Source of the DNA: an uncultured Gemmatimonadales bacterium
Lineage (GTDB): Bacteria; Gemmatimonadota; Gemmatimonadetes; Gemmatimonadales; Gemmatimonadaceae
Assembly (NCBI GenBank): GCA_963851265.1
Contig: CAWKNZ010000008.1
Span: forward strand, 32,001 to 96,000
Length of the DNA stretch: 64,000 nt
Direction: 5' to 3'
Positions within the stretch are counted from its first letter, which is position 1, and each line of letters begins with the position of its first letter. Positions 8,970 to 62,131 of the stretch are shown here, in pieces. Position numbers and translations under genes: made by a program. The notes below the pieces were generated by a model, which saw only the letters and a list, made by a program, of their open reading frames with translations, did not search any database and was not told the origin of the DNA.

Positions 8970-8982
8970 CCGCGCCGATCGC

Positions 8983-10083
8983 CTAACGCGAGAACGCCGC
9001 ACCGAGCGCGGCGACCGCGGCCAGCAGCGCCACCGCGGCGAGCCCCGCCGCGCCTAACGCGAGCGCGCGCCACCGCGCCTCGGCCGCCTGGACGAGCTGG
9101 GCGACCTGCCCGCCGAGCGACGAGGCGTCGGCCGTGAGCGCGGCCGGGTCGCCGGGCGCTCCCCCTGGCGCGTTCGGTGCGGGCACGTTCGACGCGGGCA
9201 ACTCGGGCACCTCGGGATCGAGCACCGACTGGCGCATCACGCGCTTGGCCGAGATCACCTCCTCCATCGCGCGCTCGAAGTGCACCTGGCGGATGGCCTT
9301 GGCGTCGTCGGGCCCGGGCTCGGCGGCGGCCGCGACGGCGGCCTTCAGGACGGCGTTCTTGATGTCGCCCCCGCTCCCCGCGAAGCGCTCGGCGAGCGCG
9401 CGGAAGTCGACGTCGGGGGCGAGCGGGGTCTTGAGCGGGTGCACCTGGACGCGCCAGATCTGCTCGCGCTCGTCGGGGCCGGGCATCTCGAACAGCACGT
9501 GCGTCCGCACGCGGCGCGCGAACGCGGGGTCGAAGTTGGCGGCCAGGTTGGTCGCGAAGATCACCACGCCGTTGAACGCCTCGAGCTCCTTGAGCAGCAC
9601 GTTGACGGTGGTGTTGGACTCGCGCTGGAAGGCGAGCGCCGCGCCCGCGCCGGTGCGCCGTGCGGCGATCGCGTCCGCCTCATCGAAAAACAGCACCGCG
9701 TTCTGCTCCCCCGCCGCCCGGAACACGGCCGCGACGTTCTTGGGCGTCTCGCCGGCCCACATGCTCTCGACCTCGGCGTAGTTGACGAGGAACAGCTGGC
9801 GGCCTAACGCGTGAGCGATCGCCTCGGCGCACACGGTCTTCCCCGTCCCCGGCGGCCCCGCGAAGTTGAAGGCGAGCCCGAGCCCGGTCGCGTGGCGCTC
9901 GCCGAGGCCCCAGCGGTCGAAGATGAGCGCCTGGCTCCGCACCTGCGCGAGCGCCTGGTCGAGCGTGGCGCGAGTCGCCGGCGGCAGGATCACGTCGGCG
10001 AAGGTCCGGCGCGGCGTGAACGTCTCGACGGCGCGGCGACCGCCGAGGCGGTTCTGGATGAGCGAGAGCAGCGGGGATGGCAT
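8983..10083 (-). CDS. AAA+ family ATPase with C-terminal hydrophobic helix
   Basis: Walker A GPPGTGKT, Walker B FFDEAD, SRH ATNLAANFDPAFARR. Confidence 0.88.
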   Translation of the reverse strand: MPSPLLSLIQNRLGGRRAVETFTPRRTFADVILPPATRATLDQALAQVRSQALIFDRWGLGERHATGLGLAFNFAGPPGTGKTVCAEAIAHALGRQLFLVNYAEVESMWAGETPKNVAAVFRAAGEQNAVLFFDEADAIAARRTGAGAALAFQRESNTTVNVLLKELEAFNGVVIFATNLAANFDPAFARRVRTHVLFEMPGPDEREQIWRVQVHPLKTPLAPDVDFRALAERFAGSGGDIKNAVLKAAVAAAAEPGPDDAKAIRQVHFERAMEEVISAKRVMRQSVLDPEVPELPASNVPAPNAPGGAPGDPAALTADASSLGGQVAQLVQAAEARWRALALGAAGLAAVALLAAVAALGAAFSR

Positions 10084-10134
10084 GCCAGATTGTACCCCCG
10101 GGACGGCGGAGGGTCACGCGCCCATCAACCCCGG

Positions 10135-11738
10135 TCAGCCCGGCGCGGCCGGAAGGGCGGCCGGAAGGGCGGCCGGGAGCGCGTCGGGCAGCGCGGCCCG
10201 CAGCGCCGCGCGCTGCAGCTTGCCCGACGCGGTGCGCGGGAGCGGGTCGCGCACGATGCGCACCTCCGCGGGCACCTTGTAGCGCGCGAGCTGCGCGCGG
10301 CAGTGCTCGCGCAGCGCCTCGCCGAGGGCCGCGTCGATGACATCGCCCGGCGCCGCGTCGCCCGCGGGGGGGCTGTTAGGCGCACGACGCCCACCACCCG
10401 CTGCCCCCACGCGGGGTCGGGCGCGCCCACCACGCCCGCCTCGGCCACCCGCGGGTGGGCGAGCAACGCCGCCTCCACCTCGGCCGGGTAGACGTTCTCG
10501 CCGCCGGTGATGATCAGGTCGTCGCGGCGGTCGAGCACGTACAGGTAGCCCTCGGCGTCGAGCCGCCCCACGTCGCCGGTGTGCAGCCAGCCGTCGACGA
10601 CGGCGCGCGCGGTGGCCTCGGGTCGCCCCGCGTAGCCCGCCATCACCACCGGGCCGCGCACGAGGATCTCCCCCGTCTCGTCGGGGGCGGCGTCGCGCCC
10701 GTCGACGGCCACGCGCAGCGCGTTGGGGTAGAGCGCCCGCCCCGCCGACCCGAGCTTGCGGAGAGCGTCGGCGGGGGCGAGGGTGGCCACCTGCGAGGCG
10801 GTCTCGGTGAGGCCGTAGGTCTGCACGACGGGCACGCCTAACGCCGCGCACCGTTCGAGCAGCGGCGCGGGCGCGGGGCCGCCGCCGAGCAGCACGCAGC
10901 GGAGCGACGCCGGATACGCGCGCCCGCCGCCCGCCGCGCGCGCGTCGAGCATGCGCTGCAACATCACCGCGACGACGGAGACGATCGTGACCCCCTCGGC
11001 GTCGATCGCGCCGTTCACCGCGTCGGCGTCGAACGCGTCGTGGACGACGGCGGCGGAGCCGTAGATCGCCGAGCGCAGCACGATCGACAGCCCGCCGACG
11101 TGAAACAGGGGGAGGCAGGCGAGCCAGCGGTCGTCGGGGCCGGCGCCCAAGTTGAGCGCGGACCCGACGGCACTCCACCAGAAGTTGCCGACCGTGAGCA
11201 TCGCGCCCTTGGGCCGCCCGGTGGTGCCCGACGTGTACAGCGTCGCGAGCACGCGCTCGGGGTCGTGTGCGAGTTGCAGCGGCACCTCGGCCTCGGCGGC
11301 CGCGCCGAGCACCGACGGGCCGCCCGCCTCGGACGCGAGTGTCATGGCGGGGGCCGTCGCGGCGGGGAGCGCGTCGCACGCCGCGCGCGCGAGCGCGGCG
11401 GTGCGCGCGTCGGCGACGAGCGCGCGCGGCGCGGCGTCGCCGAGCTGCCAGGCGAGTTCGGCGGGGGTGAGCCGGACGTTGAGTGGGACCAGCGTGGCTC
11501 CGAGGCGGAGCGCGGCGTGCGCGAGCACGGCCGGCGCCGCGCCGTTAGGCAGGAGCGTCGCCACGCGGTCGCCCGCGCGCGCGCCGAGCGCGGCGAGCTG
11601 CCGGGCCGCGCGCGACGCCTCCGCGTCGAGCTCGGCGAAGTTCCACGTCCGCCCGCGCGCGACGAGCGCGGCGCGCGCGGGCGCCGCGGCCGCGCGGTGC
11701 GCGAGCCAGTCGGGGAGCGCGGCCGGCGCGCCCGTCAC
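10135..11738 (-). pseudogene. menE: o-succinylbenzoate--CoA ligase, frameshifted at the G7 run 10366-10372 (real lesion or sequencing error)
   Basis: YTSGTTGRPKG, YGLTET, WLHTGD and IITGGENVYPAEVE lie in the frame starting at 11738; the C-terminal LARYKVP...LPRTASGKLQR lies in another frame ending at 10135. Confidence 0.85.
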
Positions 11739-11745
11739 GCCGGGG

Positions 11746-13379: not shown

Positions 13380-14249
13380 TCACGCCCTGGTGGCGTGGGG
13401 GCCGTCCGGCGACGGACGTGGACCGAGGCTCTCGTCCAGGAACGTCCGGACGAGCGCGGCGAAGGCGTCGGGACGCTCCAGGTGCACGGCGTGCCCCGCG
13501 CCCGCGACGACGGTGATGCGCGCCCCGGGAATCGCGCGCCGCATCGCGCGGCCTAACGCGACGTACTTCGCGTCGAGCGCGCCGGCGACGAGCAGCGTCG
13601 GCGCGCGGATCGCCGCGAGCCGGTCGAGCGCCGGCGGGTCCGCGCCCGCGCCGGCGCCGCGCAGGCTGTTGGCGAGCCCGCGCGCGTCGTTCGCCAACCG
13701 CCCCGCGCGCAGCGCCGCCCGCGCGTCGTCGCCGAGCGCGGCCTGGGACGCCCAGAGCGGAAGCCGCTCCCAGCAGTCGACGAACGCCGCGACGCCGTCG
13801 CGCTCGATGGCGTCGGCGAGCGCGGCGTCGGCCGCGACCCGCGCCGCGCGCTCGGCGGGGTCGGCGATGCCGGGCGACGCGCTCTCGAGCACGAGCGCGG
13901 CGACGCGCTCCGGCCGTGCGAGCGCGAACCGCAGCGCGGCGCGCCCGCCTAACGAATAGCCGAGCACCGCGGCGCGCGCGACGCCGGCGGCGTCGAGCAC
14001 GCGGGCGAGGTCGTCCGCGAGGCGGTCGAGCGCGAAGCGCGCCGGGTCGGCGGGCGCGCCGGAGCGGCCGTGGCCGGGGAGGTCGACCGCGAGCGTGGCG
14101 TACGACCCGCCGAGCGCGGCGCGGAGCGGCGCCCACGTGCCGCCGGCGCCGGTGAAGCCGTGCAGCAGGAGCAGCGGGGGCCCGACGCCCGCACGGGCGA
14201 GGTGCAGCGAGAGCCCGCCGCCCACGTCGACGTCGCAGGCGTCGGACAC
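13380..14249 (-). CDS. menH: 2-succinyl-6-hydroxy-2,4-cyclohexadiene-1-carboxylate synthase
   Basis: LHGFTG, GYSLGGR nucleophile elbow, LESASPG, GHAVHLE; directly after menD. Confidence 0.92.
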   Translation of the reverse strand: MSDACDVDVGGGLSLHLARAGVGPPLLLLHGFTGAGGTWAPLRAALGGSYATLAVDLPGHGRSGAPADPARFALDRLADDLARVLDAAGVARAAVLGYSLGGRAALRFALARPERVAALVLESASPGIADPAERAARVAADAALADAIERDGVAAFVDCWERLPLWASQAALGDDARAALRAGRLANDARGLANSLRGAGAGADPPALDRLAAIRAPTLLVAGALDAKYVALGRAMRRAIPGARITVVAGAGHAVHLERPDAFAALVRTFLDESLGPRPSPDGPHATRA

Positions 14250-14255: not shown

Positions 14256-16136
14256 TCAGCCCGCGGCCGTGGGCGCGACGGATCTCGCCGCGTCTAACGC
14301 GGCCGCCACCGCCGCCCACGCGCCGCGGTGCAGCACCACGTTCCGCGCGCGGTCGGTGCGCATCTCGACGAGGTGCAGCCCGCGCCCGCCGACCCCCGCG
14401 GCCACCGCGGCGCGGAGCGCCGCGGGCGTCTCGACGCGGCGGTAGCACGCGCCGTAGAGGGCCGCCGCGGGCGCGAACTCCAACCCGTGCGGGGTGCCGA
14501 ACAGCTGCTCGAAGTGCGCGGGGTGCGCCGCCTGTGGCAGGAACGAGAAGATCCCCCCGCCGTCGTTGTTCAGCACGACGATCGTGGCGTCGAGCGCGTG
14601 CAGCCGCGCCGCGAGCAGCCCGTTCATGTCGTGGTAGAAGGCGAGGTCGCCGATGACCAGCACGAGCGGCCCCGCGCCCCCGTCGTTCGCCGCGCCGTTC
14701 GACGCGTCATCCGACGCGCCGCCGCGCGCGGCCGCGGCGGCGCCTAACGCCGTCGAGACGACGCCGTCGATTCCGTTCGCGCCGCGGTTGGCCAGCACCC
14801 GGAGCGCGCGCGCGTCGCCCGCGGCGAAGGCGTCGAGGTCACGGACGGGCATGCTGCTGCTCACGAACAGCGTTCCGCCCGCCGGCACGGCGTCGGCGAC
14901 CACGGCCAGCGCGCGCCCCTCGAACGGCTCGTCGAGTCCCGCGGCGTAGGCGGCGAGCGCCGCACCCGTGGTCGCGTCCACGCGGCGCCAGTCCGCGAGC
15001 CAGTCGTCCTCCTGAGGGCCGCCTGCTCCAATGATCGCGAGCAGTCGCTCGGCGAGCACGCGCGGGTCCGCATGCACCACCTCGGCGGCCAGCAGCGAGG
15101 GGTCGGGCCAGCGCGCCGGGTCGACGACGACCAGCCGGGCCGCGGCATGTCGATCGAGGTACTGGAGCAGCGGTTTGGACGTCGGAAGCCCGCCGACTCG
15201 CAGCACGAAGTCGGGGACGAGAGACGTCGCGGTGGCCTCGTCGCGGAGCGCGGCGTCGTAGCGGTCGATGACCGTGGAGTCGCCCGCGGACGCGTCGCGG
15301 TGCACGCCCCACCGCAGCTGGGACAGCGGATCGGCGAGCAGCGGCGCCCGGAGCGCGAGGGCGAGGGCCGTGAGCGGCGCGGCGAACGCGCGGTCGGGCT
15401 GGGGGCCGCAAACGATCAGCGGGCGCCGCGCGGCGCGCAGGTCGGCGGCGAGCCGGGCCACGGTCGCGTCGTCGGGGCCGGGCGGCGCGTCGTCGACGAC
15501 GACCCACGGCGCGCCGTCGGGACGGCCCTGCCACGCCAGCGCGTCGGCGGCCGAGAGCCCGGCCGGCATCCCGACCGGGACCGGAACGAGCGGCTCGCGC
15601 AGGGGGAAGTTCAGGTGGATCGGTCCAGCCGGCGCGGCGCTCGCGAGCGCGACGGCGCGCCCGGCCAGCGTGCGCACGTAGCGCAGGAGGGCGGGCGTCG
15701 CCTCGGGCAGGGCGACCTCCGCCGACCACTTGGCGTGCGCGCCGTACAGGCGGTGCTGGTCGATGGTCTGCGCCGCGCCCACTTCGCGCAGCTCGGGCGG
15801 GCGGTCGGCGGTGAGGACGAGCAGGGGTACTCCCGCGGCGCGCGCCTCGACCACGGCCGGGAAGAAGTTGGCCGCCGCCGTGCCCGACGTGCAGAGCAGC
15901 GCCACCGGCTCGCCGAGTGCGCGCGCCATCCCGAGCGCGAAGAAGGCGGCCGAACGCTCGTCCAGGTGCACCCACGCGCGAAGGCCGGGGTGCGCGACGA
16001 TCGTCAGGGCGAGCGGTGTCGAGCGCGACCCGGGGGCGATGCATGCGTGGCGTACCCCGGCGCGCACCAGCTCGTCGACGAACGCCCCGATGTACGCGTG
16101 CGCGGCCTGCGCCGTCTCGTCGGGTGCGGCCGTCAT
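14256..16136 (-). CDS. menD: SEPHCHC synthase (ThDP-dependent)
   Basis: PGSRSTPL, DERSAAFFALG, CTSGTAAAN, NRGANGIDG, GDLAFYHDMNG, NNDGGGIF. Confidence 0.96.
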   Translation of the reverse strand: MTAAPDETAQAAHAYIGAFVDELVRAGVRHACIAPGSRSTPLALTIVAHPGLRAWVHLDERSAAFFALGMARALGEPVALLCTSGTAAANFFPAVVEARAAGVPLLVLTADRPPELREVGAAQTIDQHRLYGAHAKWSAEVALPEATPALLRYVRTLAGRAVALASAAPAGPIHLNFPLREPLVPVPVGMPAGLSAADALAWQGRPDGAPWVVVDDAPPGPDDATVARLAADLRAARRPLIVCGPQPDRAFAAPLTALALALRAPLLADPLSQLRWGVHRDASAGDSTVIDRYDAALRDEATATSLVPDFVLRVGGLPTSKPLLQYLDRHAAARLVVVDPARWPDPSLLAAEVVHADPRVLAERLLAIIGAGGPQEDDWLADWRRVDATTGAALAAYAAGLDEPFEGRALAVVADAVPAGGTLFVSSSMPVRDLDAFAAGDARALRVLANRGANGIDGVVSTALGAAAAARGGASDDASNGAANDGGAGPLVLVIGDLAFYHDMNGLLAARLHALDATIVVLNNDGGGIFSFLPQAAHPAHFEQLFGTPHGLEFAPAAALYGACYRRVETPAALRAAVAAGVGGRGLHLVEMRTDRARNVVLHRGAWAAVAAALDAARSVAPTAAG

Positions 16137-18611: not shown

Positions 18612-18817
18612 GGCACCCTCGCTTCGGGGATGGACGTGCCGACACCTATCGGCGCGCCCAACGTACGGCCGGCTGGTCCGCTGCACCAGGGCGCATCGGT
18701 CGTTCGCCAGGGATCGGGCGATCCGCCGTGCGCCGAACGGGTCATCGACGGTGTCTGTGGCCTGTCGACCGCCGCAGAGCGGCATCGCGTACGCCCGGGC
18801 TCGCCTCACCGCGCGTG

Positions 18818-19525
18818 TTAGGCGCGCAACTCACGCCGGAGCCAGGCGCGCGCCACGGCCCACTCGCGCTTGACGGTCGCCGGCGAGACGCCGAGCGCGG
18901 CCGCCGTCTCTTCGAGGGTGAGGCCGCCGAAGTAGCGCAGCTCGACGAGCCGCGCCTGTGACGGGTCGAACGCCGCGAGCCGGTCCAGCGCCTCGTGCAG
19001 GGCGAGCACGTCGGCCGTGGCGTCGGGCGCGGCCACGTTCGCGCGGTCGTCGAGCGTGACGCAGACCGCCCCGCCGCCGCGCTTGGCGGCCTGCCGCGCG
19101 CGCGCGTGGTCGACGAGAATCTGCCGCATGAGGTGCGCGGCGGCGGCGAGGAACTGCGTGCGACTCTGCCCCGCGCCGCCCGCCTGCGCGGCGAGGCGCA
19201 GGTAGGCCTCATGTACGAGCGCGGTCGCGCCGAGCGTGTGTCCGGCCGCCTCGCGCCGCATCGCGAGCGCGGCCTGGCGGTGCAGTTCGGCGTAGATGGC
19301 GGGCAGGAGCGCGTCGAGCGCCGCCCGGTCCCCCGCATCGGCCGCGACGATGAGCGCCGTCACGTCGGTCGGAGGGGCGCCGGGGCCCCTGGCATCGGCG
19401 GTCGCCGCGCCGGGCGGCGTCGCGCCGAAGGCGGGCGAGTGGCCGATCCGCGAGCCGAGCGCGGGGGCGCAGGTCGGCGCGGCGGGGAAGGAGGGCAGGG
19501 AGGTGGCGTCCATCGCATCGTCCAT
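18818..19525 (-). CDS. ECF sigma-70 factor, TIGR02999-like
   Basis: LLPAIYAELHRQA, HTLGATALVHEAYLRL, MRQILVDHARAR..AKRGG, VELRYFGGLT, TVKREWAVARAWL. Start uncertain. Confidence 0.9.
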   Translation of the reverse strand: MDDAMDATSLPSFPAAPTCAPALGSRIGHSPAFGATPPGAATADARGPGAPPTDVTALIVAADAGDRAALDALLPAIYAELHRQAALAMRREAAGHTLGATALVHEAYLRLAAQAGGAGQSRTQFLAAAAHLMRQILVDHARARQAAKRGGGAVCVTLDDRANVAAPDATADVLALHEALDRLAAFDPSQARLVELRYFGGLTLEETAAALGVSPATVKREWAVARAWLRRELRA

Positions 19526-19874
19526 CGGGCAGCCCGCGGTCGGCCGCGCGAGGCGCACGGGTCGCAGGCGTGCGACACGGCCCCCGGCGGGCGCGGGAGA
19601 AGACCGCGCGATGCCGGCTGACACCGCGCGACGATACGGGCCGCCGGGGGCGGCGTCAACACCCCGCGCGCCGCGCCGAGCCGTTTTGGTCGCGCATTCC
19701 GCATAACACGATGGGAGCAGCAAACCCGGGCCACTCTCGGCGGCGTCGTGGCGCCTCCCGGACGAGCGCGCGCCCCGCTCCCGCCCCACACCCTCACGCA
19801 CCGCGCTGCGGCGCGCGACCGCGTCCCACCACCGTCGAGCGCCACCTCAGGCGCCGCATCAGGAGACCCGCATC

Positions 19875-20129: not shown

Positions 20130-20241
20130 CCGCGGCCCGGGCCGCGGGCCAAGCCGCGGCCTAACATGCCCGCCGCGTGCCCGGAACCCGGGCCCGAGTC
20201 CGCGGATCCGGGTCCCGGGCACACACGCTGGAGACTCGACC

Positions 20242-23770: not shown

Positions 23771-25774
23771 ATGCCCCGTGCGACCCGGCATGCGCGCGCG
23801 GCCGGTTCCGTCCTCCTCGGCGCCGCCATCGGCGCCGGCGGTTGGACGGCCGCCCGCCCGCGCGCGATGCCGCCCCACCACTCGCCCGTCGCGTCCGCCC
23901 CGCGCGCCACGCCGCTCTGGCACGTCGACGCCGCGCTGTCGGCCCGGCTGCGCGGCCGCGTCGCGGGCGGGCTCGACACGCTCGACGGCGCGCTCGTCCG
24001 GCTCGCGGGCGCGCAGGCGGCGGACGCACGCCGCGATGCCTACCGCACCGCACGAGCCGCGTACAAGCGACTCGAGGGCGTGCTCGCCTACTTCGCGCCC
24101 CGCGAAGCGCTCGCCCTCGACGGCACGGAGGCCGAGGAGGGGGACGACAACCCCGACGCGGGGCGCGTCGTCACGCACGGGTTTCCGCGCATCGAGCGGC
24201 GCGTGTTCGTCGCGCCCGCCGCCCGCGGCGCGGCCGTGTTAGGCGCGCGCGACTCGGTGCGGGCGGAGGTGGCGCGCGCGCGCGGTGCGCTCGCCCGCGT
24301 GCGGGGCGCGCTCCCCTACCTCGCCGCCGCGGACGCGCAGCTGCTCGACGTGGCGCGCCTGGAGCTGGCGCGCGTGTGCACGCTCGGCATCGCGGGCACC
24401 GACGACGGCCCGGCCGGCGCCGCGATGCTCGACGCCGCAGCCGCCGTCGACGGCGTGCGCGCGCTCGTCGCCGACGCGGCGGACGCGGCCGGGGCGCCCC
24501 CGGCCGACGCGCGCGCGGCCGACGCGCGCCTCCGGGACGCGGCGGCCTACCTCCGCGCGCACCCGCGGTTCGCGACGTTCGACCGCTTCGCGTTCGTGAC
24601 CACGCGCGCGAACCCCGCGTTCGCCGCGCTCGCGGCCGTGGCCGCGCGCGTGCCGGCGCCCGCCGTGGCACTGCGCCAGGCGTGGCCCCGCGGCGTGGCG
24701 AGCGTGTACGACGCCCGCGCCTTCGACGCGATGGCGTTCGCCGCCGCGGACGCGCCCCGGCCGACCGCGGCGTGGGTCGCGCTCGGCCGCGCCCTCTTCG
24801 CCGACCCGGCGCTCTCGGGCGACGGCCGCCGCGCGTGCGCGTCGTGCCACCTGCCGGCGCGCGCGTTCACCGACGGCCGCGCGCGCGCGGCGGCGCTGGC
24901 ACCCGCGCGCGGCGCGGCCGTCGGCGAACGCGCGCTGCGCCACACGCCGCGCCTGGCGTACGCGGCGTGGCAGCCCGCGCAGTTCGCCGACGCGCGCGCG
25001 GCCACGCTCGAAGCGCAGGTCGACAGCGTGCTCGCGAGTCCGTCGGAGATGGGCAGCTCGACCGACGCCGCGGCCGCGCGCCTCGCGCACCGCGTCGCGT
25101 ACCGGCAGGCGTTCGCCGCGGCAACGGGCGCGCCGCCCGCGGCCGCCGTGACGCCGCACGCCGTGCGCGAGGCGCTCGCGGCGTACCTGCGCTCGCTCGG
25201 GCGGTTCGACTCGCGCTTCGACCGCGCCGTGCGCGGCGACGCCGGCGCCGCGCTGACGGGCGACGAGCGCCGCGGGTTCAACCTGTTCATGGGGCGCGCG
25301 CGCTGCGGCACGTGCCACTTCGCGCCGTTCTTCAACGGGACGGCACCGCCCGACTTCGCGACGTCGGCGGTCGAGGTACTCGGCGTGCCCGGGCGCTACC
25401 CCGTTCCGCCTAACGCCGTCCGCCCCCCGCCGGTCGACGCCGATTCCGGGCGCGCCGCGCTCGACCGCCTCGACGGACACCTGCACGCGTTCAAGACCCC
25501 ATCCGTGCGCGGCGCCGCGCACGGCGGCCCGTTCATGCACAACGGCGCCCTCCGCACGCTCGACGACGTGCTCGACTTCTACGACCGCGGCGGCGGCGCC
25601 GGGCTCGGCGCGGCCGTGCCCAACCAGACGCTCCCGCGCGAGCCGCTCCACCTCACCGCGCGCGACCGCCGCGCGCTCGTCGCGTTCCTCCGCGCGCTCG
25701 ACGAACCCGTCGGCGCGTACCCCGCCGCCCCCGGCGAACCGCCCCACCCACCAGCTCCGACCTCTACCCGATGA
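23771..25774 (+). CDS. di-heme cytochrome c peroxidase/MauG family protein with imelysin-like N-terminal domain (paralog 2)
   Basis: CASCH and [13 protein letters not shown]...PFMHNG; N-terminal ARAAYKRLE and HGFPRIE. Confidence 0.88.
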
Positions 25775-27138
25775 CCAGTCGTTTCACGCTTCGCGCCGCC
25801 GCCGGCATCGGCGCCGCGTGCGCCGCGGCCGCCTTCGCCGCCTCGTGCGATAGCAGCACCGCGCCCGTCTCCGCCGCCGCCTCCGACGTTTCGAAGGTCA
25901 ACCACGTCGTCGTCATCTACCTCGAGAACCGCTCGTTCGACAACACCTACGGCGAGTTCGCCGGCGCCGAGGGGCTGAGCGCGGGCGCGGCGCGCGCGAC
26001 CCAGGTGAACCTCGCCGGGCAGGCGTACACCACGCTGCCGCAGGTGACCGGCTCGCCCGTCCCGGCCACGCTGCCCAACGCGTCGTTCGACATCGCCCAG
26101 TTCGTGCCGCCGTCGACGCCCACGCGCGACCTCGTGCACCGCTACTACCAGGAGCAGCAGCAGATCGACGGCGGCAAGATGGACAAGTACGTCGCGGTGA
26201 GCGACGCGCAGGGGCTGTCGATGGGCTACTACCACACCGCGGTGCTGCCGCTTGCCGCCGAGGCCGCCAAGTACACGCTCGCCGACCACTTCTTCCACTC
26301 GGCGTTCGGCGGCTCGTTCCTGAACCACATGTACCTCATCGCCGCGGCCGCGCCCGTGTTCCCCAACGCGCCCGCGAGCATCGTCGCCAAGCTCGACGGC
26401 AGCGGCGCCCTGCTCACGGACGGCGCGGTGACCCCCGACGGATTCGTCGTGAACACGTCGTACACGGTCAACTCGCCGCACCCCGCCAGCGCCGCCGCCG
26501 CGAACCTCGTCCCCGTGCAGACCCTACCGACGATCGGCGACCGGCTGTCGGACAAGAACGTGAGCTGGGCCTGGTACTCGGGCGGCTGGAACAACGCCAT
26601 CGCGGGCACGCCGGACGCGACGTTCCAGTTCCACCACCAGCCGTTCGCGTACTTCGCCAACTACGCCGACGGCACCCCGGGGCGCGCCGCGCACCTCAAG
26701 GACGAGACCGACTTCGTCGCCGCCGCGCAGGCCGGCACGCTCCCGGCGGTGTCGTTCGTCAAGCCGTTAGGCGTCAACAACGAGCACCCGGGCTACGCCG
26801 ACATCCTCACCGGCGAGAACCACGTGGTGCAGCTCATCAACGCGGTGCGCAACGGCCCCAACTGGAAGGACGCCGCGATCATCATCACCTACGACGAGAA
26901 CGGCGGCTTCTGGGACCACGTCGCCCCGCCCACGGTCGACAAGTGGGGCCCGGGCACGCGCGTGCCCGCGCTCGTCATCTCGCCGTTCGCGAAGAAGGGC
27001 TACGTCGACCACACCACGTACGAGACGACGTCGATCCTCGCGTTCCTCGAGAAGCGCTACGGGCTCGCCCCGCTCGCCACGCACGACGCGCAGGCGGCCA
27101 ACATGCTCTCGGCGTTCGACTTCTCGCAGACCCCCTGA
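25771..27138 (+). CDS. acid phosphatase/phospholipase C (phosphoesterase, AcpA-like) lipoprotein
   Basis: [50 protein letters not shown] overlap with the upstream gene. Confidence 0.92.
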
Positions 27139-27267: not shown

Positions 27268-27741
27268 ATGACAACCCCGCCGCCCGTGTCCGCCGAGCCC
27301 CCGTTCGTCTTCCGCGACCCCGGCGAGCTGCGCGACGGCGAGCTGACGCTCGTGCTCGACTACCGCTCGCCGGCCGACCCCGCGCGCGGCTGGATCCCGA
27401 CCTACCACTTCTCGCTCCACGTCGACGGTCGGCGCGTGGGCGGGATCGAGTTGCGCGTCGACCTGGCCGGCGCGCTCGACCACACGACGGGGCACTTCGG
27501 CTACTTCGTCGAGCCGGCGTCGCGCGGGCGCGCGCTCGCGGCGCGCGCGGCGCGCCTCGTGCTGCCGCTCGCCCGGGCGCACGGGCTCGATCCGCTGTGG
27601 ATCCTGTGCGAGCCCGACAACCTCGCGTCGCGCCGCACCTGCGAGCGGCTCGGCGCGGTGCTGGCTCCCGCGGAGGCGGGCGCAGCGGCGGGGGCGCGCT
27701 GCCGGTATCGCCTGGACGCGGCCGCCCCGCCCGAGCGTTAG
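27268..27741 (+). CDS. GNAT family N-acetyltransferase
   Basis: GHFGYFVEPASRGRALA and CEPDNLASRRTCERLGA motifs. Confidence 0.85.
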   Translation: MTTPPPVSAEPPFVFRDPGELRDGELTLVLDYRSPADPARGWIPTYHFSLHVDGRRVGGIELRVDLAGALDHTTGHFGYFVEPASRGRALAARAARLVLPLARAHGLDPLWILCEPDNLASRRTCERLGAVLAPAEAGAAAGARCRYRLDAAAPPER

Positions 27742-27754
27742 GCGCGCGCGGGCG

Positions 27755-28348: not shown

Positions 28349-28822
28349 GGATCGGTCGGGCTTCCGGGGACGGGCGGCGTCGACATCACGATGACATACA
28401 ACGCGGACCGGGAAAGGTTCGTTCTGCCGCGGTGTCGGGCGACACGCGCGCCCGGCGACGGCGAGGGCGGGCACATCTGTCGCCGCCCAGCCGCGGCAGC
28501 GCGCGGGGCGGGTGGGCGAACCGGGCGCGCGCCGCGCGGCCGACGGGCCCGCGGCGTGTAGCAGGCTTGCGCCGCACCGGGATGCCTCACATTTTGGCGC
28601 GCGTTGATACTCAATGGCGGACGGCGGCGCGGCTCGGCGGCGCGCCGCCCCCGCCGCAGCGGGGCCGGCGGGGAACGCCCGCGCCCAATGCCTAACGCGC
28701 GGCGCGTCCGACCACCGGCCGCCCCCGCCGCCCGCGCGGCCGCCGAGGAGCGCGCCCAACGGCGCGCCGAACGGCGCGCCGAACGCACGACCGCGCACCA
28801 CCCCACCCACACGGAGATTCGC

Positions 28823-33616: not shown

Positions 33617-34945
33617 ATGCGCACCGCACACCGCCGTCTACCGCCCCACGCCCTCCTCGCCGCCGCGTTAGGCGTCGCCGCGCCCGCGGCCCGCGCGCAG
33701 CCGCCCGCCCCGCCGACGGCCGTTCGTTTCGGGCGGCTGGTCGACGGCACGGGGGCCGTGATCCGCGACGCCGTCGTGGTCGTCGAGGGCGATCAGGTGC
33801 GGCGCGTCGGCACGGGCGATGCCGCGGTGCCCGCCGGGGCCCGCGTCGTCGACCTGCGCCGCTTCACCGGCATCCCGGGCCTGATCGACGCGCACACGCA
33901 CATGACGTTCTACTGGGACCGCAGCCCCGGCACGCGGCCCTGGGCGCAACTCGGCACGCTCGGCGCTGCGGTCACCGTGTTCCTCGCCCAAGAGAACGCG
34001 CGCAAGACGCTCGCGACCGGCGTGACGACGGTGCGCGACCTCGGCTCGTGGGAGTACACGGATCTGGCGATGCGCGACCTCATCGCGCGCGGCGCGATGG
34101 TCGGGCCTCGCATGTTCGTCGCGGGCTACGGCCTGCAGATCACGAGCACGCCCTACCGGCCCGGCGGCGCGCCGCCCGCGCCCGGCCAGGCCGACGGCGT
34201 CGCGGAGGTCGAGCGCGTGGCGCGCCAGCAACTCGCCGCCGGCGCCGACTGGGTGAAGATGTACGCGTCGACCGGGAGCGACCAGGACGTCACCGGGTTC
34301 CAGACGTTCGGCTACGACGAGATCAAGGCCGCGGCCGACGTCGCGCACCGCGCGGGCAAGCGCATCGCGGTGCACTCCTACGGCCCCGACGGCGCGCGCG
34401 ACGCGGTGCGCGCCGGCGTGGAGTCGGTCGAGCACGCCACCGACATGGACGACGAGACCCTGCGCGAGATGGCGCGGCGCGGCACGGTCTACGTGCCCAC
34501 CGTCGAGCACAACCGCTACTACATCGCGCACCGCGCCGAGTACGGCTACGACCAGGCCGCGGCCGACCGGCTGGAGGGATACGTGCAGCGCAACTTCGCC
34601 ACGCTCCGGCGCGCCGTGCAGGCGCGCGTACCGATCGCGATGGGCTCCGACGCCGTGTTCACCGGCTTCGGCGAGAACACGCGCGAGCTCGCGTGGTTCG
34701 TGAAGGCGGGCATGACGCCGGCGCAGGCGCTCGCGGCCGCGACCACCACCGGCGCCGCGCTGCTCGGCATGCGCGGTCGATTGGGCGTGGTCGCCCCGGG
34801 CGCGTACGCGGACCTCGTCGCCGTCGACGGCGACCCGCTCGCGAACGTCGATGCCGTGATCCGCGGCGTGCGCTGGGTGATGAAGGGCGGGGAGGTGGTG
34901 GTCGATTCGACGCGTGCCGATGCGCCGCGCGGAACGGGGCGCTGA
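33617..34945 (+). CDS. metal-dependent amidohydrolase (Xaa-Pro dipeptidase-like), secreted
   Basis: PGLIDAHTH, GVTTVRDLG, GADWVK, AVHSYG, SVEHA, MGSDA, GAYADLVAVDGDP. Confidence 0.9.
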   Translation: MRTAHRRLPPHALLAAALGVAAPAARAQPPAPPTAVRFGRLVDGTGAVIRDAVVVVEGDQVRRVGTGDAAVPAGARVVDLRRFTGIPGLIDAHTHMTFYWDRSPGTRPWAQLGTLGAAVTVFLAQENARKTLATGVTTVRDLGSWEYTDLAMRDLIARGAMVGPRMFVAGYGLQITSTPYRPGGAPPAPGQADGVAEVERVARQQLAAGADWVKMYASTGSDQDVTGFQTFGYDEIKAAADVAHRAGKRIAVHSYGPDGARDAVRAGVESVEHATDMDDETLREMARRGTVYVPTVEHNRYYIAHRAEYGYDQAAADRLEGYVQRNFATLRRAVQARVPIAMGSDAVFTGFGENTRELAWFVKAGMTPAQALAAATTTGAALLGMRGRLGVVAPGAYADLVAVDGDPLANVDAVIRGVRWVMKGGEVVVDSTRADAPRGTGR

Positions 34946-36276: not shown

Positions 36277-36695
36277 GCGTCGTGCGCGAGACGCGGGCGA
36301 TGCTCGCGGCGATGTGCCCGGCGCTCCGCGCCGGGGAGTACGTGTTCTGCTCGGTGCCGGCCGACGGCGCCGACGCCTGTCGCGGCCTCGAACCGCTGGG
36401 CTGGTTTCGCGAGGCCGAGGGCGTGTCGCTCATCCTCGAGCGCGCGGCCGCGGAGCGGGCGGGCGTCGGCGCCGGCGTGCCGCTGCGGTGCATCACGCTC
36501 GCCGTCCACTCCGCGCTGGACGGCGTGGGCCTAACGGCGGCCGTGGCCACCGCGCTCGCCGGGCGCGGGATCGCCGCGAACGTGGTGGCCGCGTTCCATC
36601 ACGACCACGTGTTCGTGCCGGCGCACGCGGCCGACGACGCCCTGGCGGTGCTGCGCGGAGTGCAGGCCGCCGCGGAGGCCGCCCCCGGCCCCTAG
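36273..36695 (+). CDS. ACT domain-containing protein
   Basis: FREAEGVSLI, ITLAVHSALDGVGLTAAV, NVVAAFHHDHVFVP. Confidence 0.85.
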   Translation: MSVVRETRAMLAAMCPALRAGEYVFCSVPADGADACRGLEPLGWFREAEGVSLILERAAAERAGVGAGVPLRCITLAVHSALDGVGLTAAVATALAGRGIAANVVAAFHHDHVFVPAHAADDALAVLRGVQAAAEAAPGP

Positions 36696-49425: not shown

Positions 49426-49479
49426 GGGCGGCGCGCGGGGGTTGCCGGTGCATACAGCAGCGCGGGCGCGCAGCTGTCA

Positions 49480-50904: not shown

Positions 50905-51014
50905 GGCCTCGGCCCCCCTGACGCGGCGCGTGACCGCGCCCGCGCGGACAACCGGTATTTCCGAGTGCAGCGCACGGCCTCCGCGGCCTCCCCGCCCTTT
51001 CTCGCCCCGCCCCG

Positions 51015-52445
51015 ATGTCCGACCACGCCTCGTCGTCCGACCACGACCTTGCCCGCCGCTACCGCCTGCTCGACATCGCCGCCGAGGGCGGCGGCGTGCG
51101 CAGCCGCCATGCGGAGGAGTTCACGACGGGGCGGACGGTGATGGTGCACGAGGTCGACGGGGTGAGGCCGGCGGTGGTCGAGCGGTTGGGAGAGCAGATC
51201 GGGCGACTGCTCCCGGCGGACAGGAGGCTGGTGCTCGAGACCGCGGCATTCCCCGCGGGCTTCGCCATAGTTACCGAATTTCTCCCCGACCTCGCGTCAT
51301 TCCCTGCGTGGCTCGACGCGCGGGTGCGGGGCGCGGACCGCGCGCGCTCGGCGGAGCCCGACGGTTCCCCCGTCGCGATGGAGTTCTACGTCGGCGCGCC
51401 GGCACCGGGCGGCGCGGCCGCGGCCCCCGCAGCCGCGGGGGCCGGCGAGTTCACCCGCCTCTTCGTGCTCGGCGGCAAGGTCTCGTTCGAGCCGGCCGCG
51501 GCCGGAGCGGCGGGGCCTGAGCGGGCGCGTCCCGCGTCCGACCCAGCACGGTCCGATTCGATCGACGCGGCCGTGGTGCCGGCACAGCCCCCTGCCCCGG
51601 CGCCGCCCGTCGCGTCGGTGCCGGCGCCGGTGGTACCAGTCACACCACCACTCGCCGCGGGCGAGTTCACCCGGCTGTTCAACGCGTCCACGCCGGCGCC
51701 GGCGGGCGTCGGGGCCGCGTCGCCGCTCGTGCCGGCGGGCCCGCCGTCACCCGCACCGCGGCCGCCCCGCGCCGACGTCGCCGATGGGCTGCCGGGTGCG
51801 CGACACGCCCCCGCGGCGGGACCGGACGCCCCGTTCGCGCCGCCGCCGTTGCAGCCGACGCCCGCGTCGCCGATGGTGCCGGCCCAGGCGCCGCGCCCGA
51901 CGACCCCGCATGCCGCGGCAGCACCGCCGTACGCGGGCGGCGGGGCGACCGGAGCGCTCGCGGCGCGTGCCGTTCCGCCGGAGGCGCTGGCCGACCCGCT
52001 CGCCGCGTTCGCCGCGTTCGTGGCCCCGCCGGCAGGGATCGCTCCGCCCGCCGCGGCGTGGCGCCCCGCGGAGGCGGTGGCGTCCGCGGAGGGACTCCCT
52101 CCGGCCGCGGTGGGGGGCGTCGCGCGCGGACCCGCGCCGTTCGCGCCCGCCGTCGCGCCGCCGTCGGCGAGCGCGGGCCCGAGCGATTACACCCGCCTGA
52201 TCCGGAACGCCGTCGCGCCACCCCCGCCCGCGCGCGCGCGGCCCGCGTCGCCCGACGCCGCCGTGTCGCCCGTGCGGTTCCCGCTCCGCCTGGTGGTCGC
52301 GGTCAACGTCGCCCTGCTGCTCGCGGCGGCGATCGTCCTCTACTTCGCGACCCGCCCGCCGCAGCCGGCGGGGAGCGGCGCCCCGGGTGCAGCGCCTAAC
52401 GGGGTGCCGAACGCCCCGCCGACCGTGGCCGCGCCCCGCCGGTAG
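51015..52445 (+). CDS. Pro/Ala-rich membrane-anchored protein with kinase-N-lobe-like N-terminus and GEFTRLF repeats
   Basis: RYRLLD...GGGVRS....TGRTVMVH...AIVTEFLP; GEFTRLF twice plus SDYTRLI; C-terminal TM helix. Confidence 0.65.
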   Translation: MSDHASSSDHDLARRYRLLDIAAEGGGVRSRHAEEFTTGRTVMVHEVDGVRPAVVERLGEQIGRLLPADRRLVLETAAFPAGFAIVTEFLPDLASFPAWLDARVRGADRARSAEPDGSPVAMEFYVGAPAPGGAAAAPAAAGAGEFTRLFVLGGKVSFEPAAAGAAGPERARPASDPARSDSIDAAVVPAQPPAPAPPVASVPAPVVPVTPPLAAGEFTRLFNASTPAPAGVGAASPLVPAGPPSPAPRPPRADVADGLPGARHAPAAGPDAPFAPPPLQPTPASPMVPAQAPRPTTPHAAAAPPYAGGGATGALAARAVPPEALADPLAAFAAFVAPPAGIAPPAAAWRPAEAVASAEGLPPAAVGGVARGPAPFAPAVAPPSASAGPSDYTRLIRNAVAPPPPARARPASPDAAVSPVRFPLRLVVAVNVALLLAAAIVLYFATRPPQPAGSGAPGAAPNGVPNAPPTVAAPRR

Positions 52446-52470
52446 CGCCGGCCGGCGAGCGGCGCGCCGA

Positions 52471-57559: not shown

Positions 57560-57574
57560 CGCGACCCGACGCCC

Positions 57575-58311: not shown

Positions 58312-59388
58312 ATGGCAAATTTCACGGCCGTACCGCAAAGCGTATTGCAGCACATTCCGGGCAGTTTCACGAGCGACTGGCAGGCGATTCTCCAACGCCC
58401 GGGCACGTACTCCCTGTTCGACGAGCGCCAATGGCGCCTGGTAGTGCCTAACAACGAGGGCGACGCGGAAAAGGGTCCGCAGGCGCGCCTGATCGGCATG
58501 TGGGGTGGCCAGGACGGGGGCCAGCGGCTGGACGTTCGGCCGACGCATCCGATTCCCGGCCTGACGATCCAGCTGGTCTCCGAAACGCCGATCGCGCCCC
58601 ACCTCTGGCTCTGGTGCGTCACCGCGAACTTGCCGCAGTGCCTCGTGCGGCCGGTCCAGGCCGCGATCCTCGGGGTCACCACGGTGGCCGACGCGAACCG
58701 GCCGGCTGGCACCCCATTCGCGGGCGAGCTGCCCTTGGTGATCACACCGGAGGGCCCTTCAGGAGCCGGGGGGTACGGCAGCAATCTTCCCAACTGGGCG
58801 GGCGGGACGCGCGACGAGACGCGCGATGCCATCCTTCGCGAGTGCGAGCGGCAGGGGGTCCGACTCGATACCCAGGTCTCCTACCTGCTCGCCACCTGCG
58901 AGCACGAGTGCGGCTTTCGGCCGATCCGTGAAGGCCAGTTCGGCGGGCGCGCCGCGCAAGGAAGTGAGAACTTCCGCCGCACACTGCGCTACTACCCGTA
59001 CTTCGGTCGCGGCTACGTCCAGCTCACCCACTCGGGGAATTACAAGGCCTACGAGGACCGGCTCCGATTGGAGTTGGTCGGCGATCCCGACCTGGCGCTC
59101 CAGCCCGCGGTGGCCCTGTTCGTTCTGGTATTCGGTGTCACGAACGGGAGCTTCGGTACGGCCATGACCCATTTCGTCAACGCACAACGGACCGATTTCG
59201 TCAACGCGCGCCGGTCGGTCAATGCCCTGGACCGGGCCGAACACATCGCGACGATCGCCGAGCGCTGGCTGGTGTGGATCCGGAGCAACCACCCGGATCG
59301 ATTCGCGCGCGGGTTTCAGGCGGCGCGTGCGGGCGTACCGGGCGCGCTCGCGCCGGGCGGGCACGCGCCGCAGCAGATCCGGCAATGA
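58312..59388 (+). CDS. GH19/lysozyme-like peptidoglycan glycosidase, candidate T6SS effector
   Basis: YLLATCEHE, YFGRGYVQLTHSGNY, DFVNARRSVN; GGAGGG Shine-Dalgarno; no signal peptide. Confidence 0.8.
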   Translation: MANFTAVPQSVLQHIPGSFTSDWQAILQRPGTYSLFDERQWRLVVPNNEGDAEKGPQARLIGMWGGQDGGQRLDVRPTHPIPGLTIQLVSETPIAPHLWLWCVTANLPQCLVRPVQAAILGVTTVADANRPAGTPFAGELPLVITPEGPSGAGGYGSNLPNWAGGTRDETRDAILRECERQGVRLDTQVSYLLATCEHECGFRPIREGQFGGRAAQGSENFRRTLRYYPYFGRGYVQLTHSGNYKAYEDRLRLELVGDPDLALQPAVALFVLVFGVTNGSFGTAMTHFVNAQRTDFVNARRSVNALDRAEHIATIAERWLVWIRSNHPDRFARGFQAARAGVPGALAPGGHAPQQIRQ

Positions 59389-60286: not shown

Positions 60287-60338
60287 CGGTCGAACACTCA
60301 CCTTCGTTTCGTCCGGGGCCACGTGTCTGAAGCCGGCT

Positions 60339-61439
60339 TCACACCGCCAAGGCGCCCGCGATCACGAGTCCCGTGCACTGCACGAGGCAGTACCCCGGCG
60401 GCGCACACACCCCGCGCTCCACCGCCGGACCGAACGCCGTGCCTAAAGATCCAGCCACCGGCCACGTCGCCGCCGGTACGTTCGACACGTCCACCGCCCC
60501 CTGCCGCGACCGCTCCACCTCCGCCGCGCCCACGTACCCCACCCGCCGCCCGGGCTCCAGGAAGCGCGCCCACGTCTCGGGATACCAGTAGCGATCCGCC
60601 CGCCCCATCCGCCCCGTCAGCTCCGCCCACCGCGCGCGCGTCTCGGCGCTCATCCCGCGCACCGCCACGTCGTCGGGCAGGAGCGTCGGCCCGACAAACC
60701 AGCGCTCGCGCGGCGCGACGAGCGGCCACGCGCCGCCTGCCCGAGCGCCGCCGAACGCTGCGGCTGCCGTCGCGTCGATCGCCACCGCCGACGGCACGCC
60801 CCCGTCCGCACCCGCGAGCACCGTTAGGCAGTACGGCACCTCCGCCGCGAACCGCGGACGCCCGTACGACCCGCCCTCGCGCGCCCCGCCCGTCCCGCCT
60901 CCCCCGGCCGCCGAGACCCGCAGCGGACCCTCGTACAGCGCGACCGCGACGCGCCCCGCCCGCCCGACGGGGAACGTCCCCGCCGCGTCGTGCGCGGCGA
61001 GCCACCCGTGCGCGAGCGTCGCCTCGTACGCCGCGCGCCCGTCCGCCGGCCACGCCGCCGTCGCGCCCCGCGGCGCGGCCGGCCACGGCGCCGCCGGCAG
61101 TCCCACGAACGCCGCGCGCACGAGCCCGCGCACGAGCGCCACGTCCTCGCGCGCGAGCGTGGCCGCGGGCGCGTGGGTCGCCACGGTCAGCCGGCCCGTG
61201 AGCGCGCTCACGAGCCGCACGAGCGCGGCCGGCGCCGGGAGCTCGGGCGAGAGCGCGTGCCGGGCGTACGACTCCGCGACGAACGCCGGCAGCCGGTACG
61301 TGCGCCGCGCGAAGCGCGTCGCCTGCGCGAGGGCCCTCCGGTGGTCCCCGGCGTCGCCGGCGAGCCACTCGGTGTGCGCGACGCGCCGCCACGCGGGCGC
61401 GAGCGGGCCGGGGGCGGGCGAAACAGCGGGGTCGGCCAT
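60339..61439 (-). CDS. hypothetical protein divergent from tssB
   Basis: Long ORF with GC-rich codon usage; no recognised motif. Start uncertain. Confidence 0.55.
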   Translation of the reverse strand: MADPAVSPAPGPLAPAWRRVAHTEWLAGDAGDHRRALAQATRFARRTYRLPAFVAESYARHALSPELPAPAALVRLVSALTGRLTVATHAPAATLAREDVALVRGLVRAAFVGLPAAPWPAAPRGATAAWPADGRAAYEATLAHGWLAAHDAAGTFPVGRAGRVAVALYEGPLRVSAAGGGGTGGAREGGSYGRPRFAAEVPYCLTVLAGADGGVPSAVAIDATAAAAFGGARAGGAWPLVAPRERWFVGPTLLPDDVAVRGMSAETRARWAELTGRMGRADRYWYPETWARFLEPGRRVGYVGAAEVERSRQGAVDVSNVPAATWPVAGSLGTAFGPAVERGVCAPPGYCLVQCTGLVIAGALAV

Positions 61440-61579
61440 GATACGCCGGAGTGGTGCCAGAACCGCGCCCCGCCGCGCCGCGGTGATCGGATCGGGCGCG
61501 GCTTTCGGTACCCACCCGTGCACTCCCACGCACGCCACCGCAGGCCGCGCCGCGGCCGCCCACCCGCCGGAGTCGTCGC

Positions 61580-62131
61580 ATGCCCCCCAGTACGCAGCAA
61601 CAGCTCGGACGCGTCCGCCCGCCCCGCGTCCAGATCACCTACGAAGTCGAGACCGGCGGCGCGATCGAGATGAAGGAGCTTCCCTTCCTCATGGGAGTGC
61701 TCGGCGACTTCACCGGGCACGCCACCGAGCCGCTCCCGCGGCTCAAGGAGCGCAAGTTCGTCGAGGTCACGCCCGACAACTTCGACGACGTGCTGGCGAG
61801 CATGAAGCCGCACCTCGCCCTCACGGTCGAGAACAAGTTGAGCGAGAACTCGGACGCGCCGAGGCTGGCCGTCGACCTCACGTTCCGCTCGATGGACGAC
61901 TTCGCGCCGGACGCGGTGGCGCGGCAGGTCAAGCCGCTCCGCGAACTGCTCGAGCTGCGCACGCAGCTCGCCGACCTGCGCGGCACGCTCCAGACCAACG
62001 AGAAGCTCGACGAGGTGCTCCAGAGCACGCTCGGCGACCAGGACAAGATGGCGCGGCTCCGCGGCGAGCTCGGCCTGGGCGACGCGCCGGCCGGCGGCGC
62101 GCCTAACGGTGGGGGGCCGGCCGATGGCTGA
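61580..62131 (+). CDS. tssB: type VI secretion contractile sheath small subunit
   Basis: RVRPPRVQITYEVETGGA, ELPFLMGVLGDF, FRSMDDFAPD. Confidence 0.96.
   Translation: MPPSTQQQLGRVRPPRVQITYEVETGGAIEMKELPFLMGVLGDFTGHATEPLPRLKERKFVEVTPDNFDDVLASMKPHLALTVENKLSENSDAPRLAVDLTFRSMDDFAPDAVARQVKPLRELLELRTQLADLRGTLQTNEKLDEVLQSTLGDQDKMARLRGELGLGDAPAGGAPNGGGPADG

Follow-up and report, generated by a model that had tools for sequence, protein, structure and literature searches.

The stretch under study, hereafter the window, is 64 kb of a contig (G000:C8:32001-96000) from a 4.60 Mb assembly, G000, comprising 12 contigs with a GC-content of 73% and a completeness of 94%. Its 48 predicted coding sequences include genes for an AAA ATPase, MenE-, MenH- and MenD-like proteins, di-haem peroxidases and parts of a type VI secretion system. 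The heptamer GCCTAAC (GTTAGGC on the opposite strand) occurs in the window 22 times as an exact string, with 14 copies on the plus strand and 8 on the minus strand. The extended form YGCCTAAC(G/A) is a real, lineage-specific word of the genome, the host being a soil bacterium of the Gemmatimonadaceae. The best relative of the MenD-like protein, at 80% identity, belongs to a metagenome-assembled genome labelled Gemmatirosa sp., and its relatives are labelled Gemmatimonadaceae or Gemmatimonadota.

The first-pass annotation of the window had reported this number and strand distribution of copies, with a purine following each of them, and a recount gave the same figures (G in 17 copies, A in 5). 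The near-variants it listed, GTCTAAC at 14292 and GTTAGAC at 23670, 42469 and 56473, are all present. Most CTAA/TTAG 4-mers lie in the context of the word, as had also been claimed: 22 of 31 are inside it, and 8 of the other 9 are its single-mismatch relatives. Dinucleotide-preserving shuffles of the window (n = 100) gave a mean of 2.31 copies (sd 1.58, largest 8), and 22 was reached by none of them. The coding sequences of the window hold 17 words, compared with 0.98 ± 0.93 (maximum 4) in 200 synonymous-codon shuffles preserving the protein and the codon counts of each gene. Genes were predicted with our own crude caller based on open reading frames and codon scores (3603 coding sequences in the genome, 88% coding), which is not a curated annotation, and domains were assigned with Pfam.

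All copies are listed in Table 1. The host genes proposed previously (AAA ATPase, MenE-, MenH- and MenD-like, phosphoesterase, amidohydrolase and TssB/VipA) were confirmed by Pfam. The word is read in the rare-codon frames nCG-TTA-GGC, G-CCT-AAC and GC-CTA-AC, the codon preceding TTA being checked at its last two bases only. The stop codons that it supplies at 8983, 18818 (minus strand) and 27739-27741 are also as reported.

Table 1. Exact copies of the word in the window, with their genes, reading frames and state in orthologues
Feature	Position	Strand	Location	Reading or role	Relatives
word GCCTAACG	8981..8987	+	end of AAA ATPase gene 8983-10083 (minus strand)	CTA = TAG stop	
word	9052..9058	+	AAA ATPase gene (minus strand)	nCG-TTA-GGC	
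word	9802..9808	+	AAA ATPase gene	nCG-TTA-GGC	present in G001 orthologue
word	10375..10381	-	AMP-binding (MenE-like) gene 10125-11738 (minus strand)	GC-CTA-AC	
word	10836..10842	+	MenE-like gene	nCG-TTA-GGC	kept in G001 and G004
word	11544..11550	-	MenE-like gene	G-CCT-AAC	GTTGGGC in G001, GTCGGGC in G004
word	13551..13557	+	alpha/beta hydrolase (MenH-like) gene 13380-14249 (minus strand)	TTA-GGC	common to G003 and G004, not G001
word	13947..13953	+	MenH-like gene	TTA-GGC	common to G003; GCCGAAC in G001 and G004
word	14742..14748	+	thiamine pyrophosphate enzyme (MenD-like) gene 14256-16136 (minus strand)	TTA-GGC	common to G001, G003 and G004
word	18817..18823	-	end of extracytoplasmic function sigma factor gene 18818-19558 (minus strand)	TAA stop	
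word	20159..20165	+	intergenic		
word	24238..24244	-	CCP_MauG paralogue 23771-25774 (+)	TTA-GGC	GTTGGGC in G003
word	25408..25414	+	CCP_MauG paralogue 23771-25774 (+)	G-CCT-AAC	common to G003
word	26766..26772	-	phosphoesterase gene 25771-27138 (+)	TTA-GGC	common to G004; TTG-GGC in G003, CTC-GGC in G008
word	27737..27743	-	end of GNAT gene 27286-27741 (+)	TAG stop (27739-27741)	
word	28690..28696	+	intergenic		
word	33667..33673	-	amidohydrolase gene 33617-34945 (+)	TTA-GGC	
word	36529..36535	+	ACT-domain gene 36270-36695 (+)	GC-CTA-AC	
word	52394..52400	+	476-aa gene without Pfam family, 51015-52445 (+)	G-CCT-AAC	
word	58446..58452	+	347-aa gene without Pfam family, 58345-59388 (+)	G-CCT-AAC	
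word	60823..60829	-	366-aa gene without Pfam family, 60339-61439 (minus strand)	GC-CTA-AC	
word	62101..62107	+	TssB/VipA gene 61580-62131 (+)	G-CCT-AAC	

In the whole genome, the heptamer occurs 1762 times in 4.6 Mb, or once per 2.6 kb, compared with 64–96 copies expected, and these copies hold 71% of the 2470 CTAA 4-mers. The octamer GCCTAACG is found 1396 times versus 58 expected (z = 174), which makes it the top 8-mer by a wide margin, in a 400-kb subsample too. Expectations were calculated with second- and third-order and masked Markov models; a maximal-order Markov scan misses the word because its sub-words are all dominated by the word itself. The strongest outliers of the maximal-order scan are heptamers with AGCGCT or AGCNNCT (AGGCGCT, AAGCGCT, AGCGGCT, etc.), with, for example, 2075 copies against 1040 expected. 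All coding sequences of the genome contain 1281 words versus 68 ± 10 in 20 synonymous-codon shuffles, and the enrichment announced in the first-pass annotation thus holds against both codon- and dinucleotide-preserving nulls. The eighth base belongs to the word, with enrichments of approximately 28-fold for G, 26-fold for A, 6-fold for T and 2.4-fold for C. Information content does not exceed 0.16–0.21 bit in the flanks beyond positions −1 to +8, where just the three-base periodicity of coding DNA is visible. An extended motif or a dispersed repeat of the repetitive extragenic palindrome or miniature inverted-repeat transposable element type was therefore ruled out.

Most copies (74%) are intragenic. 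By reading frame they comprise 989 nCG-TTA-GGC (antisense to the word), 200 G-CCT-AAC, 70 GC-CTA-AC and 24 GTT-AGG-C; a further 14 represent gene-model errors. The spacers and gene edges, 12% of the genome, hold 465 copies, among which are those providing 117 of 419 TAA stops (GCC-TAA-C) and 83 of 716 TAG stops (GT-TAG-GC). TTA codons are concentrated in it, as had been expected, with 987 of 1288 (77%) found within G-TTA-GGC. The word fills 7.9% of the Leu-Gly opportunities (996/12,624), 11% of Pro-Asn (205/1855) and 8.2% of GC|Leu-Thr (70/855), and 0.7% (24/3347) in Val-Arg-C, where two rare codons are required. Although 78% of genic copies are antisense, an intrinsic preference for the non-coding strand was ruled out, since the fill per opportunity is alike in both orientations; the excess arises because Leu-Gly is a common dipeptide, i.e., from the capacity of the proteome. 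The similar fill in both orientations and the low fill with two rare codons indicate a signal on the DNA which is strand-blind and balanced against codon cost. The DNA-level signal proposed in the first-pass annotation is thus borne out: the rare codons appear only in the context of the word, and the word is present in stops and spacers as well. Fill increases with the codon nativeness of the gene: the lowest decile shows 3.7% and the ninth 12.0%, before a drop to 9.2% in the most biased one. This trend fits slow accumulation in resident DNA combined with a higher cost in highly expressed genes.

The GC skew of G000 is flat, so the replichore arms were guessed from gene orientation on the 1.83-Mb contig. 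The strand of the word follows the strand of the gene only. Intergenic copies in the three presumed arms number 16 plus and 18 minus, 37 plus and 30 minus, and 10 plus and 16 minus, and Leu-Gly fill is 8.2% in presumed leading-strand genes versus 6.2% in lagging-strand ones. Polarity of the type known for Chi or for the FtsK-orienting polar sequences (KOPS) was ruled out, since there is no intergenic skew and the genic skew is at most 1.3-fold; the earlier suggestion that the word is not a strictly polarised signal of this type was correct. Summed over the 46 word-rich genomes described below, there are 49,923 forward and 50,188 reverse copies.

Spacing was compared with a null in which the same number of sites was drawn randomly from all synonymous opportunities and spacer positions. 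Short gaps are depleted in G000: 46 gaps of up to 200 bp were found versus 149 ± 11 in the null, and 193 versus 331 ± 15 of up to 500 bp, while above 1.5 kb the observed and null distributions agree. Pairs within 300 bp are depleted in both arrangements, direct (18 vs. 77) and inverted (12 vs. 35), which suggests that a second copy near the first is unrewarding. No gap is longer than 45 kb, and those above 12 kb number 23. Within the window, the longest word-free stretch (36529-52394, 15.9 kb) carries the type VI secretion membrane-complex genes tssM, tssL and tssK, with ordinary GC-content and codon score.

The word is also sharply defined. In G000 the exact heptamer has an observed-to-expected ratio (O/E) of 27.7, and the 21 forms with one mismatch, taken together, have one of 0.98; only GTCTAAC, GACTAAC and GCCCAAC reach 2.2–2.4. 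For the uptake signal sequences (USS) of Pasteurellaceae and the DNA uptake sequences (DUS) of Neisseriaceae, the published representation, (O − E)/E, is 183 and 392 for the exact forms, and 2.0 and 4.8 at one mismatch, respectively (PMC1939737, Table 1). The lack of a mismatch halo is a real difference from USS and DUS, though the word is also enriched about ten times less strongly overall.

The distribution of the word among relatives was studied in two sets of genomes. Among 31 genomes of the order, all four congeners of G000, as well as G012, G008, G017, G018 and G030 (the last from another family), are rich in the word, with 6360 octamers in the 5.1 Mb of G012; the remaining genomes have 6–65 octamers, and G016 is intermediate with 194. 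The family survey covered 151 Gemmatimonadaceae genomes from 64 genera, at least 85% complete. Octamer density in it is bimodal, with 46 rich (at least 75 per Mb, up to 1340), 7 intermediate (25–75) and 98 poor genomes (below 25), in agreement with the lineage specificity inferred from the window. The tallies include two unpublished genomes, G011 and G045, as word-poor rows, on which no conclusion depends. Contrasts exist within genera: genus g50 is split, with 3896 and 4141 copies in two genomes (G058 and G140) versus 66 in another (G106). An RpoB tree was constructed with FastTree from 27 rows chosen by BLAST, three of them partial; it is a single-gene topology, taken irrespective of branch support. 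In this tree the poor G009, G005 and G015 are the nearest neighbours of rich lineages, which suggests that the trait has been gained or lost several times.

Congeners share 76–86% nucleotide identity with the window. Twelve words of the window were compared with orthologous sites, about 24 pairs in all, and the word is kept in 11 of these pairs. The other sites carry CTC-GGC, TTG-GGC and similar synonyms, and relatives also possess words where G000 has none. The word arises copy by copy via point substitutions, at places where the DNA tolerates it, and turns over between species. The rpoB gene of G012 contains 10 words versus 0–2 in others; one position is common to the genus of G000, and at four of the ten the protein is altered as well (Asp/Glu/Ser to Asn, Ala to Gly). 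At a GC-content of 62%, 276 kb sampled from G012 showed the same word, one per 683 bp, with a coefficient of variation of the gaps of 0.81, and the word recurs in dozens of independent assemblies with GC-contents of 62–73%. Dialects of the word were not supported among the three relatives sampled: G012 has the same word, the word-poor G006 showed no hyper-abundant replacement word in the 285 kb sampled, and G029 showed tandem arrays only. The latter genome belongs to another family of the order, and its top 8-mers in G029:C4:1-400000 belong to heptamers repeated in short tandem arrays, (GGTAAGA)n and (GGGGCTA)n, often in inverted pairs approximately 100–150 nt apart, with 58–75 8-mer copies per 400 kb.

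The window also contains paralogous pairs. Two TssK/VasE paralogues (49480-53877) lie on either side of the 476-aa gene without a known family, and two CCP_MauG-type di-haem peroxidase paralogues adjoin one another at 21641-25774.

A sequence-specific process acting on DNA, rather than on protein or mRNA, keeps the word far above chance. This process is orientation-blind, saturating and lineage-specific, and it overrides codon usage and, at its strongest, protein sequence. To our knowledge, among known mechanisms only biased DNA uptake combined with recombination is documented to do all of this. We therefore favour, tentatively, the possibility that the word is an uptake-signal-like self tag maintained by molecular drive, by analogy with USS and DUS. 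Some part of the uptake apparatus would prefer DNA carrying the word, and fragments with the word from relatives would be taken up and recombined more often. Molecular drive would then spread the word up to the point where rare codons became too costly. Both the competence of these bacteria and an uptake bias towards the word are inferred.

Genes for such machinery are present. G000 encodes ComEC, DprA, ComEA-like proteins and two secretins (PilQ-like). ComEC (PF03772) was found in 142 of the 151 family genomes and in 45 of the 46 rich ones, the exception being an assembly of 910 contigs. Besides this rich genome, the nine genomes without a ComEC match comprise eight word-poor ones, 90–98% complete: G053, G102, G137 and G165 (all four genomes of g45), G072, G118 and G149 (all three of g64), and G033. 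The presence of ComEC in nearly all rich genomes means that the uptake explanation passes a test able to sink it, yet gains little.

Several observations weigh against uptake. ComEC is equally common in word-poor relatives, and PilQ-like and ComEA-like proteins, detected in 30 and 28 of the 31 genomes, respectively, occur in rich and poor genomes alike and are non-discriminating. A pilin-like cluster at G000:C3:171436-175138, composed of a 154-aa and a 409-aa protein, each with a prepilin-type N-terminus, and a third protein of 660 aa without a Pfam family, fitted five hand-picked genomes, being detected in the three rich ones and in neither of the two poor ones. As a candidate receptor it fails family-wide: it is present in 76 of 151 genomes, many of the poor ones among them, and was not found in the rich G049, G057 and G050 or in three of the four genomes of g9. 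Some genomes possess several paralogues of the cluster. The single-mismatch halo typical of USS and DUS is not seen. No documentation of natural competence in this phylum was found in the literature searched, and no description of the word was found there either. Finally, the exact identity of the word with the R box of integron attC sites, described below, is not explained by plain uptake drive, nor by any other explanation considered here alone, and chance is an unlikely cause of it.

Of the four functions suggested in the first-pass annotation, which named no single mechanism, two are weakened by the results, a methylation or repair target and an integrase recombination site: the sole methylase found is order-wide, and richness is unlinked to IntI.

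The self-avoiding and saturating spacing, with few long word-free stretches, could also be produced by an intracellular binding or control site under direct selection, needed about once per 0.5–3 kb in either orientation. Such a site might halt or attenuate a nuclease that processes DNA ends (Chi-like self-protection), or it might be where a nucleoid or segregation protein is loaded. The sharpness of the word and the weak excess of GTTAGGC on the presumed leading strand are in line with such a site. However, the intergenic copies show no replichore polarity, and the 18–28-fold enrichment uses rare codons and even residue changes, unlike Chi. Chi words are built from common codons, and both Chi and the KOPS and SpoIIIE recognition sequences (SRS) are strongly skewed with replication. 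The on/off occurrence within one family, and even within genus g50, would be odd for a housekeeping function, and no word replaces it in the sampled part of the poor G006. We regard a directly selected site as rather unlikely.

The heptamer is spelled like the integron core GTTRRRY/RYYYAAC, as noted in the first-pass annotation, and the resemblance extends to resident cassettes. In G000, canonical attC hairpins are formed by convergent pairs of words with a spacing of 90–121 nt at C10:186-206 kb and C6:1592-1708, with R'' CGCCTAACG, L boxes and R' CGTTAGGCG; seven were aligned, with fold z-scores from −1.2 to −5.8. The eighth base in their R boxes is G in six of seven and A in one, the bases preferred genome-wide; the resident cassettes thus have the word as their R box, down to its eighth base. 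By simple arithmetic, about 1 in 500 random heptamers would match the core or its complement. The first of these loci, G000:C10:186000-205999, is a cassette array of small open reading frames that has 22 words in its 20 kb besides the canonical hairpins, and no integrase match was found there in a scan of the genome. Integrons are known in Gemmatimonadota (PMC8618304).

Natural transformation is described as feeding cassettes to the chromosomal integron in Vibrio (PMC12614218). A related possibility is that an import receptor, for uptake or otherwise, is tuned to the attC R box, so that cassette-bearing DNA would be preferred and chromosomes would be filled with the core as a side effect. We consider this doubtful. 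If true, natural transformation and gene capture by integrons would have become coupled during evolution, and this in a phylum without known competence.

An integron system, or a relative of one, might instead read the word itself, with IntI or another tyrosine recombinase acting on the copies, or with the copies serving as landing or decoy sites for cassettes. Besides the R-box identity, this would agree with the situation in word-poor relatives, where most copies lie in same-strand arrays with a spacing of approximately 550 bp, some on the contig bearing intI; in G021, 40 of 65 copies are on three such contigs. Integrases are also reported to insert cassettes at genomic sites, though these require just GWT (preprint 10.1101/2022.09.11.507474). 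Against this, intact full-length IntI is not associated with richness, being found in 26 of 46 rich, 3 of 7 intermediate and 52 of 98 poor genomes. A role of IntI as driver or victim of the word was rejected, as a hint of broken intI in rich genomes among the 31 relatives disappeared among the 151 (57% vs. 53% intact). The richest genus, g9, has intI fragments or nothing. In G000 itself intI is split at C6:3005-6044, with model positions 2–265 at 5244-6044 and 260–313 at 3005-3166, both on the minus strand. The insert of about 2.1 kb encodes a large serine recombinase (Resolvase, Recombinase and zinc ribbon domains) on the plus strand; an Rfam scan of the region gave no match, and a group II intron is therefore not recognisable in the insert. 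Genomic copies of the word are single, with 11 convergent pairs within 200 nt among 1750 gaps and no flank or hairpin consensus, and the attC architecture is confined to the handful of sites given above. Insertion would also be harmful in genes, where most copies lie. An integron reader is accordingly improbable in our estimation.

A bias of mutation linked to methylation or repair, in which a marked word would gain copies by conversion of near-cognates, as proposed for HIP1 or by very-short-patch repair, is even harder to sustain. HIP1 does provide a precedent as a hyper-abundant, quasi-periodic octamer recognised by two methylases (PMC13756078). A catalytic-motif filter over the predicted proteome of G000 yielded 35 candidate methylases, 33 of which were scanned (all except the two shortest, of 133 and 149 aa). 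One DNA methylase was found, a Type IIG/DrmMI-like N6-adenine enzyme (Eco57I/MmeI-type) of 1141 aa located beside an SNF2 helicase (759 aa) at C7:579717-585511. Enzymes of this class read asymmetric sites of 6–7 bp. However, this sole methylase is present in 30 of the 31 genomes of the order, in the manner of a core gene, with its identity tracking phylogeny, and is not co-distributed with the word; more than a dozen of its orthologues show one in-frame TGA. No match to PF00145 (C5 methylase), PF03852 (Vsr) or PF01555 was found in G000 (94% complete), and a methylase or Vsr as the reader was rejected. The change of CTC/CTG-GGC into the word would require G/C to A/T substitutions, the opposite of T:G to C:G patch repair, and the C-to-T variant GTCTAAC is not depleted, occurring at 2.4 times expectation.

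That the enrichment merely follows from biased composition, codons or peptides, from a family of dispersed repeats or from assembly artefacts has a negligible probability, for although the common Leu-Gly dipeptide accounts for the antisense excess, the dinucleotide, Markov and synonymous-codon nulls all fail by 18–28-fold, the flanks are not conserved and the same word occurs in independent assemblies. The weight left beyond these readings goes to some explanation not listed here.

We know of DNA-uptake self tags firmly established in two host-associated families of Proteobacteria only, with HIP1 as a recent candidate. If the uptake explanation is true, the word would be a third independent case, in abundant and mostly uncultured soil bacteria, and such tags would appear to be a general outcome of biased DNA exchange. 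The clean on/off spread among the 151 genomes, together with the within-genus contrasts, could let phylogenetic profiling find the reader, a task that has proved difficult for the classical tags. Because the word is identical with the integron recombination core, two systems of gene flow so far studied separately are linked. The word also serves in practice as a marker of native versus recently acquired DNA in these genomes and in metagenome bins, and it may be a handle for the genetic tractability of Gemmatimonadaceae.

Compared with known systems, the word resembles USS and DUS in being short, non-palindromic, exact and equally frequent on both strands, with about one copy per 0.7–3 kb. It is mostly intragenic in frames tolerated by the proteome, is found at gene ends too, is spaced more evenly than chance, is common to related species with turnover and can change residues. 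Competence genes are present in G000, though also in most word-poor relatives. For USS, even spacing, a lack of orientation bias and mostly intragenic sites are described in PMC1939737. Unlike USS and DUS, the word belongs to another phylum, has 7–8 specified bases rather than 9–12 and is enriched approximately 18–28-fold rather than 180–390-fold. Expressed as O/E, the exact form reaches 27.7 versus about 184 for USS and 393 for DUS, and the one-mismatch forms 0.98 versus about 3.0 and 5.8 (from PMC1939737, Table 1). Inverted-pair terminators were not seen beyond the attC sites. In Neisseria, the minor pilin ComP is the dedicated DUS receptor.

Highly iterated palindrome 1 (HIP1, GCGATCGC) of cyanobacteria is likewise a hyper-abundant octamer in coding DNA with quasi-periodic spacing, unevenly distributed across its phylum, and it is now argued to aid transformation (PMC13756078; bioRxiv 10.1101/2024.09.10.611283). 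HIP1, however, is a palindrome read by known methylases, whereas the word is asymmetric, and no co-distributed methylase, C5 methylase or Vsr was found for it. With the R box of the integron attC/attI core (GTTRRRY/RYYYAAC) the word shares identical letters, including the eighth base, and it is used by the attC hairpins of G000; the genomic copies, in contrast, are single double-stranded words in genes, without L boxes or hairpins, and their abundance is unrelated to IntI. Like Chi and KOPS/SRS, the word is an octamer over-represented across the whole chromosome, but unlike them it has no intergenic skew, has a genic skew of at most 1.3-fold and uses rare codons.

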